DNA from: Escherichia coli
GTDB lineage: Bacteria; Pseudomonadota; Gammaproteobacteria; Enterobacterales; Enterobacteriaceae
Length of the DNA stretch: 64,000 bases
Reading direction: 5' to 3' (one strand)
Assembly: GCF_003018255.1 (NCBI RefSeq)
Contig: NZ_CP027440.1
In this document: positions 14,733-14,767 of the stretch, one piece after another
Numbering within the stretch: position 1 is the first letter of the stretch
Layout: every line of letters begins with the position of its first letter
Position numbers and translations under genes: made by a program
Notes under the pieces: generated by a model
What the model was told of the DNA's origin: nothing
What the model saw: only the letters and a program-made list of their open reading frames with translations
The model's database searches: none

Positions 14733-14767
14733 TCGAATGCGAATCTTTGCATTCGGTGTATTTTTTT
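14733..14767 (+). terminator. Rho-independent terminator or attenuator between the substrate gene and the permease gene
   Basis: Hairpin atcgaatgc-gaatcttt-gcattcggt followed by tttttttc. Confidence 0.55.

Follow-up and report, generated by a model that had tools for sequence, protein, structure and literature searches.

The dispersin–aatPABCD locus

The DNA analysed here, referred to as the window, is a stretch of 64,000 nucleotides (nt) from Escherichia coli (NCBI RefSeq assembly GCF_003018255.1, contig NZ_CP027440.1), read on one strand from 5' to 3'. It contains an island of ~30% GC and roughly 6 kb (positions 13800–19800) amid E. coli core genes of ~50% GC, in which a gene for a dispersin-like protein is followed by genes resembling aatPABCD, and the element of concern is a hairpin with a U-tract in the gap between the two, a candidate terminator placed between a secreted substrate and its transporter. 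The island is chromosomal and lies between ybdK and entD, with ybdG, nfsB, ybdF, ybdJ and ybdK on the left flank and entD and fepA on the right, and insertion sequence (IS) remnants (IS4/IS5 and IS630) are found at both borders. Judged by gene order and sequence similarity, the locus is a dispersin–aatPABCD locus encoding an Aat secretion system, with the gene order aatP-aatA-aatB-aatC-aatD. Its features are as follows.

14320–14325, plus strand: Shine-Dalgarno (SD) sequence AAGAGG of the dispersin-like gene, read from the sequence (SD/anti-SD duplex −6.5 kcal/mol)
14331–14693, plus strand: substrate gene of the dispersin family (Aap/CexE-like), 120 amino acids (aa), from the open reading frame (ORF), tblastn, precomputed Pfam PF28204 and alignment
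14694–14729, plus strand: A/U-rich 3' untranslated spacer of 36 nt between stop codon and hairpin, from the sequence
14730–14759, plus strand: terminator-like hairpin with a 13-bp stem (14730–14742 with 14747–14759) and the loop AUCU, from folding and homologous hairpins
14761–14767, plus strand: U-tract (T7), one nucleotide past the stem, from the sequence; transcript release would be expected at ~14765–14768
14768–14774, plus strand: spacer CAAAAAA right before the aatP ATG, without an SD sequence, from the sequence
14775–15902, plus strand: aatP-like ABC permease (FtsX/MacB type), 375 aa, from the ORF; 47% identity to AatP and 79% to plasmid homologues
15899–17113, plus strand: aatA-like TolC-family outer-membrane protein, overlapping the aatP stop by 4 nt (PF02321 OEP, E 3e-11)
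17001–17849, plus strand: aatB-like HlyD-type adaptor, from the ORF and domain matches; the Prokaryotic Genome Annotation Pipeline (PGAP) uses a start equivalent to 17085
17846–18475, plus strand: aatC-like ABC ATPase, the start of which overlaps the aatB stop by 4 nt, from the ORF and domain matches
18484–19704, plus strand: aatD-like N-acyltransferase (CN-hydrolase/Lnt-like; TIGR00546 lnt, E 3.5e-9, below the curated cutoff)

The five-gene order of Aat loci is thus present in full, and the assignments are based on domain matches, several of them under curated cutoffs, together with the identity to annotated AatP. The gene names given by PGAP to an identical locus in DETEC-S792 agree with them. 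At >99% identity the locus is found in 3 of 5426 complete E. coli genomes, and the closest relatives of the window system are plasmid-borne, with 73–79% identity. A more distant Aat-like system is present on the chromosome of E. coli ECONIH1 (L013, 3494–10888) and in ~40 complete E. coli genomes; DNA similarity detects only the 5' region of its aatP (73% identity), its putative substrate gene of 115 aa is parted from aatP by IS fragments, and an afa-type fimbrial cluster adjoins it.

The 120-aa product shares 46.7% identity with Aap of enteroaggregative E. coli (EAEC) 042 and 76% with unnamed plasmid homologues in tblastn comparisons. The Pfam family PF28204 (Dispersin) is assigned in precomputed annotation to near-identical proteins, including a 97% homologue, and a local Pfam scan of the window protein itself gave no Dispersin match. 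A signal peptide ending in NAFA and followed by GGSG can be read from the sequence, so that the Sec signal peptide with a following glycine that marks Aat substrates is present, and alignment of the dispersin family shows an invariant A-x-A|GG motif, two invariant cysteines and an invariant C-terminal W-x-K. The labels of substrate gene and transporter genes, which a sequence-only reading of this DNA had given to the two sides of the gap, are therefore correct. A search with the dispersin-family profile yielded only 38 cluster representatives. The profile also matches large proteins of 510–2098 aa (P0019, P0027, P0036, P0039, P0040 and P0042) through 5–6 repeated stretches each, an indication that dispersin-like modules are repeated in tandem in large proteins.

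In every linked lineage compared, the dispersin gene is preceded by a strong SD sequence and aatP by none. The AatP N-terminus, M-x-x-x-x-Y-I-K/N-D-A-L, is conserved from the ATG at 14775 in the tightly linked lineages. Codons 3–6 of aatP contain a run of nine T residues (14782–14790). Strain JNE23-011, whose locus is 99.8% identical, has T8 here, as JNE112863 probably does too (800 of 801 nt aligned). The T8 variant shifts the frame opened by the ATG at 14775, and PGAP starts the permease there at the TTG equivalent to 14805 (365 instead of 375 aa). Candidate causes of the difference are slipped-strand phase variation, decay of the gene and sequencing error.

A terminator-like hairpin at the substrate–transporter junction

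The gap between the TAA stop codon of the substrate gene (14691–14693) and the ATG of aatP measures 81 bp. No other gap of appreciable size separates genes of the operon: the aat cistrons adjoin one another or share nucleotides, as in the 4-nt ATGA/GTGA overlaps at 15899 and 17846. The sequence-only reading had placed a hairpin followed by a T-run at 14733–14767 and had proposed a calculation of its folding energy. The structure is borne out, with a stem that begins three bases further to the left: the junction reads ACAUCGAAUGCGA-AUCU-UUGCAUUCGGUGU (14730–14759), followed by A (14760), U7, CAAAAAA and the ATG. The stem consists of 13 pairs without a mismatch, five of them G-C and two G-U, around a loop at 14743–14746; it has a GC content of 43%, and its bottom pairs are weak (A-U, C-G, A-U, U-G). 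The calculated minimum free energy is −17.4 kcal/mol, compared with −5.2 ± 2.1 kcal/mol in dinucleotide shuffles (z = −5.9), and none of 200 shuffles was as stable. In longer contexts, representing either the 3' end of the gene or the read-through RNA, the mean pair probability of the stem is 0.91–0.97. A stem of at least 13 bp with a T-run arises anywhere in the 6-kb AT-rich island in 1% of dinucleotide shuffles.

Both the stem-loop and the U-tract of an intrinsic terminator are hence recognizable from sequence and folding, and the hairpin starts 36 nt past the TAA on the coding strand, the location in which an intrinsic terminator is found. The U-tract ends 7 nt and the hairpin 15 nt before the aatP ATG. 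The same architecture is seen in two core-genome terminators of the window, both located after terminal genes (54183–54208, −21.3 kcal/mol, and 56587–56560, −23.7 kcal/mol); beside these the junction hairpin, at −16.6 to −17.4 kcal/mol, is rated intermediate in strength. The possibility that it is a repetitive extragenic palindromic or bacterial interspersed mosaic element (REP/BIME type), or the end of a mobile element, was ruled out, the hairpin being single-copy in the window at up to three mismatches. Across 5426 E. coli genomes, homologous Aat loci are the sole matches to the junction region.

Leaving aside the dispersin gene with its leader, which is richer in GC, the hairpin is the most stable structure among the 40-nt windows of the island. 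Other structures are present in the island. The putative 5' leader of the dispersin gene contains a stable imperfect hairpin at 14228–14267, ~65–100 nt before the ATG, with −17.7 kcal/mol for a 40-nt window. Within aatD, positions 18885–18924 form a 15-bp, almost pure A-U hairpin, AGCAUUAUUUUUUUG...AAAAAAAUAAUGCU (−13.2 kcal/mol), which may only mirror the extreme AT content. A second terminator-like match, at 18537–18561 past aatC and before the aatD start used by PGAP, consists entirely of A-U pairs and was dismissed as a chance occurrence (−5 kcal/mol, z −0.6).

Conservation of the hairpin among linked lineages

The comparison covered every lineage found to have a dispersin-family gene directly upstream of aatP. 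These are listed with protein identity to the window, the gap between the two genes, the hairpin and the tail that follows it.

L014/L015 (Logan assemblies of public sequencing runs): 97%, gap 80 bp, same hairpin, tail U6
L002/L003/L016/L017 (plasmids and other contigs): 73–76%, gap 68 bp, homologous hairpin, tail GUUUAUAC
L004/L005: 76%, gap 77 bp, homologous hairpin, tail GUUUAUACC
L018/L019: 73%, gap 45 bp, unrelated GC hairpin, tail UCAUUGAAAAAG
L020–L023: 52%, gap 45 bp, unrelated 9-bp hairpin (z −9.9), tail UAAAACAAAAAAG

A stable hairpin is located 12–15 nt before the aatP ATG in all five tightly linked lineages, followed by an A-rich spacer without an SD sequence, and in two of the five its sequence is unrelated to that in the window. 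A real U-tract is possessed by the window lineage only (T7, and T6 in the 97%-identical L014/L015); at the corresponding position the plasmid lineages read GTTTATAC. Between lineages of 73–76% protein identity, the junction has 81% column identity, as against 53% for the upstream non-coding region. In the three lineages with homologous hairpins, substitutions in the stem are mostly wobble or compensatory changes, with two pairs doubly changed and 89% of alignment cells paired. Owing to G-U pairs, the fold of the sense strand is more stable than its antisense counterpart in eight of nine loci (−17.4 against −15.1 kcal/mol in the window), the order being reversed in L020, and this bias points to a function at the RNA level on the mRNA strand.

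Hairpins, most of them with a U-rich tail, likewise close dispersin-family genes that are not linked to aatP, as seen for aap of EAEC 042, cexE of enterotoxigenic E. coli (ETEC), L025, L027 and L028. At the aatP genes not preceded by a dispersin gene (EAEC, TW14425 and ETEC), no such hairpin was found near the start, which is still SD-poor. Taken together, these two observations argue that the hairpin belongs to the substrate gene and was retained at the point of fusion. That it forms part of an aatP leader was rejected, as the aatP genes of unlinked systems are without such a hairpin. In L009, a hairpin lies upstream of an aatP that is not preceded by a cexE gene. Four distant profile matches were inspected as well; these have other gene arrangements and provided further examples of terminators and no new tightly linked junctions.

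A probable leaky terminator within the operon

We consider it probable, with moderate confidence, that the hairpin and the U7 form the Rho-independent terminator of the dispersin-like gene, situated inside the dispersin–aatPABCD unit and constitutively leaky. Transcription would start at a promoter upstream of 14331, the 13-bp hairpin would fold once the 363-nt ORF and the 36-nt spacer have been transcribed, and most polymerases would release the transcript at ~14765–14768; with a spacer of this length, a terminating ribosome would not be expected to block folding. The product would be a short monocistronic dispersin mRNA, the 3' hairpin of which would shield it against 3' exonucleases, and a minority of polymerases would pass on into aatP-A-B-C-D. 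On the longer transcript, the SD-less start of aatP, 15 nt past the hairpin, would reduce the output of transporter further at the level of translation, and transporter translation is probably low and coupled. The outcome would most likely be that far more coat protein than transporter is made. Termination, its efficiency, the read-through and the stabilising effect are what we infer from the sequence.

Several features of the junction are consistent with this proposal. Leakiness is plausible under established terminator rules: the stem is rich in A-U pairs and weakly paired at its bottom, and an A separates it from the U-tract. The 7 nt between the U-tract and the ATG leave no room for a promoter, so that transcription of the aat genes must pass the hairpin; the read-through that the sequence-only reading had invoked to supply the transporter would thus be required. 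No consensus-like promoter was found between 14331 and 14775. To look for the promoter of the operon itself, the 300 nt preceding the dispersin gene were aligned across five lineages, and no block of conservation emerged. The strong SD sequence of the dispersin gene and its absence from aatP would act in the same direction as termination, favouring substrate over transporter.

The sequence-only reading had left open whether the element is a terminator or an attenuator. The anatomy is that of an intrinsic terminator, and nothing was found that speaks for regulated attenuation. The terminator stem dominates the ensemble, with no competing antiterminator fold and just a 4-bp hairpin predicted upstream. 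An Rfam scan of 13800–15100 at a permissive E-value returned chance-level matches only, the best of them at 17–18 bits (E 0.66–4.4) and none close to the gathering score of its family, and no match with up to two mismatches to the operon polarity suppressor (ops) element recognized by RfaH (GGCGGTAGnnTG) was detected in 13121–18828. Hence, without a competing fold, an ops site or an Rfam family, the term leaky terminator fits better than attenuator.

A number of observations weigh against this interpretation. The U-tract is degraded in two sister lineages (GUUUAUAC in the plasmids) and absent in two, with the hairpin retained, and its loss indicates that the hairpin may be under selection for something else. 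Covariation in the five distinct homologous sequences is not statistically significant and cannot be distinguished from shuffles. No gene for an AraC-type (AggR/Rns-like) activator is present in the island, which bears on the expression of the operon in this strain; a relative, L019, has such a gene ~1.4 kb upstream. In addition, the word terminator is absent from the accounts of Icke et al. (PMC7943197) and Rivas et al. (PMC7344145). Termination may therefore be neither the sole nor the ancestral role of the hairpin, and its family-wide role may be the stabilisation or processing of an mRNA 3' end, to which termination was added in the window lineage.

Alternative explanations

A function that is mainly in mRNA stability or processing appears unlikely, though it is the leading rival. 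In such a scheme, the full operon would be transcribed and RNase E would cut the AU-rich single strand past the hairpin, leaving the dispersin segment protected and the aat segment to decay faster. Segmental mRNA stability is known from the pap pilin and malEFG mRNAs. The hairpin is kept in all five linked lineages with the U-tract degraded or absent in four, the hairpins of L018 and L020 are unrelated in sequence and have A-rich tails, and the UUUUUUUCAAAAAAA stretch would suit RNase E as a substrate. However, the window lineage has a textbook U7, and the 97% lineage a U6, that a pure stabiliser would not need, and dispersin genes elsewhere end in canonical terminators. Stabilisation is also compatible with termination, since any terminated transcript likewise ends in a protective hairpin. 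Also unlikely is the wider proposition that the stem-loop is a conserved intercistronic RNA module, the selected function of which is post-transcriptional (RNase processing, stabilisation of the dispersin mRNA 3' end and/or gating of aatP translation), with the U7 as a recent add-on. Taken by itself, control of aatP translation, by which the hairpin would limit or position 30S binding on the read-through mRNA, is improbable. The distance from hairpin to ATG stays at 12–15 nt in the five lineages despite their differing hairpin sequences, and aatP is SD-less throughout; yet this constant distance may merely reflect compaction, and the aatP genes of EAEC, TW14425 and ETEC, which are not preceded by a dispersin gene, are SD-poor without any hairpin, as expected if the hairpin belongs to the upstream gene.

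It is also conceivable, at a low probability, that a dispersin cassette landing upstream of aatP brought in the hairpin, which would now be either a relic without function or a full block to transcription. The aat genes would then be silent or transcribed from a weak internal promoter (TTGCCA at 14702–14707 with TAAACA at 14725–14730), with transcripts starting inside the hairpin. The rarity of the IS-flanked island, its lack of an activator gene, the T9/T8 frameshift polymorphism in aatP and the −35-like TTGCCA in the 3' untranslated region (UTR) are in keeping with this scenario. Against it, five diverged lineages have kept both arrangement and hairpin, with compensatory changes, a dispersin gene would be useless without an exporter, and the putative internal promoter scores 8 of 12, is without the invariant −10 T and shows no conservation among relatives. 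Least probable is that the hairpin serves as a bidirectional terminator, stopping antisense transcription from the AT-rich aat genes, or as the source of a 3'-UTR-derived, Hfq-binding small RNA. The minus-strand version does fold and has a moderately U-rich tail, and in L020 it is the stronger of the two. Moreover, in differential RNA sequencing of the O104:H4 pAA plasmid, the most abundant antisense RNA of the plasmid (90 nt, aTSS_2433) maps opposite aap (PMC5066232). By a rough coordinate estimate, aTSS_2433 would start just downstream of the EAEC aap terminator. At the window locus, however, the minus strand has neither a convergent gene nor a promoter-like site just downstream, the G-U pairs favour the sense strand in all loci except L020, no Rfam match was obtained and the U-tract that Hfq binding would need is absent in relatives.

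Relation to known systems

The closest functional analogue of a leaky terminator at this junction is found in the haemolysin operon hlyCABD of E. coli, in which a stem-loop terminator between hlyA and hlyB uncouples the expression of substrate and transporter (PMC9306574). In both cases the terminator would lie between the gene of a secreted substrate and the downstream ABC-transporter genes. In contrast to the window operon, at which there is no ops-like site, read-through in hly needs RfaH acting via ops/JUMPstart, and the hly substrate is an RTX toxin, whereas that of the window is a Sec-dependent, 12-kDa, lipoprotein-like coat protein. The same operon logic, in other protein families and with other secretion routes, is also seen in fimbrial operons and at lantibiotic prepeptide genes such as nisA, where the gene of the abundant product comes first and is followed by a weak terminator or stabilising hairpin and then by the assembly or export genes, expressed at a low level.

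Within the dispersin family, aap of EAEC 042 and cexE of ETEC resemble the window gene in having a stable hairpin with a U-rich tail 10–35 nt past the stop codon. The aap hairpin is ACGCUGGAU-UCCU-AUCCAGCGU followed by UUUUGGGA, and that of cexE is CGCCC...GGGCG followed by GUUAUUGUU; on the EAEC 042 pAA plasmid (L012), aap ends in a 9-bp hairpin and UUUU (2376–2397). Unlike the putative window terminator, which abuts the aatP start codon, these close a monocistronic unit: aatPABCD is located elsewhere on the plasmid in EAEC and 272 bp downstream of cexE in ETEC, compared with the gap of 81 bp in the window. A transcription start site upstream of the aat cluster has been mapped in the related O104:H4 pAA plasmid (PMC5066232). 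According to Icke et al. 2021 (eLife, PMC7943197), 18.4% of Aat systems have aap/cexE at most 400 bp upstream of aatPABCD. The window belongs to this close-upstream class, as a chromosomal variant (ybdK/entD) with a gap of only 81 bp. In Hodson et al. (PMC5554520) and in the pAA transcriptome paper (PMC5066232), the word terminator appears only in the names of a sequencing kit and an exonuclease, so that a junction terminator has no description in the Aat literature searched; it would be an ordinary element of operon design, not yet described for Aat.

Implications for Aat secretion

The design principle is well known, and the finding refines the annotation of the locus and does not change the understanding of Aat secretion. 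The surface of diarrhoeagenic E. coli is covered by dispersin/CexE proteins, of which the cell requires far more than of the five-component Aat exporter. In EAEC and ETEC, the ratio of substrate to exporter can be set by separate promoters, whereas the compact dispersin–aatPABCD operons must set it within one transcript. The hairpin is the obvious candidate for this control and hence a target for mutagenesis when Aat systems are expressed or engineered. The junction also illustrates what becomes of a terminator when a gene cassette is joined to a transporter operon: it is kept, loses strength or gives way to another.
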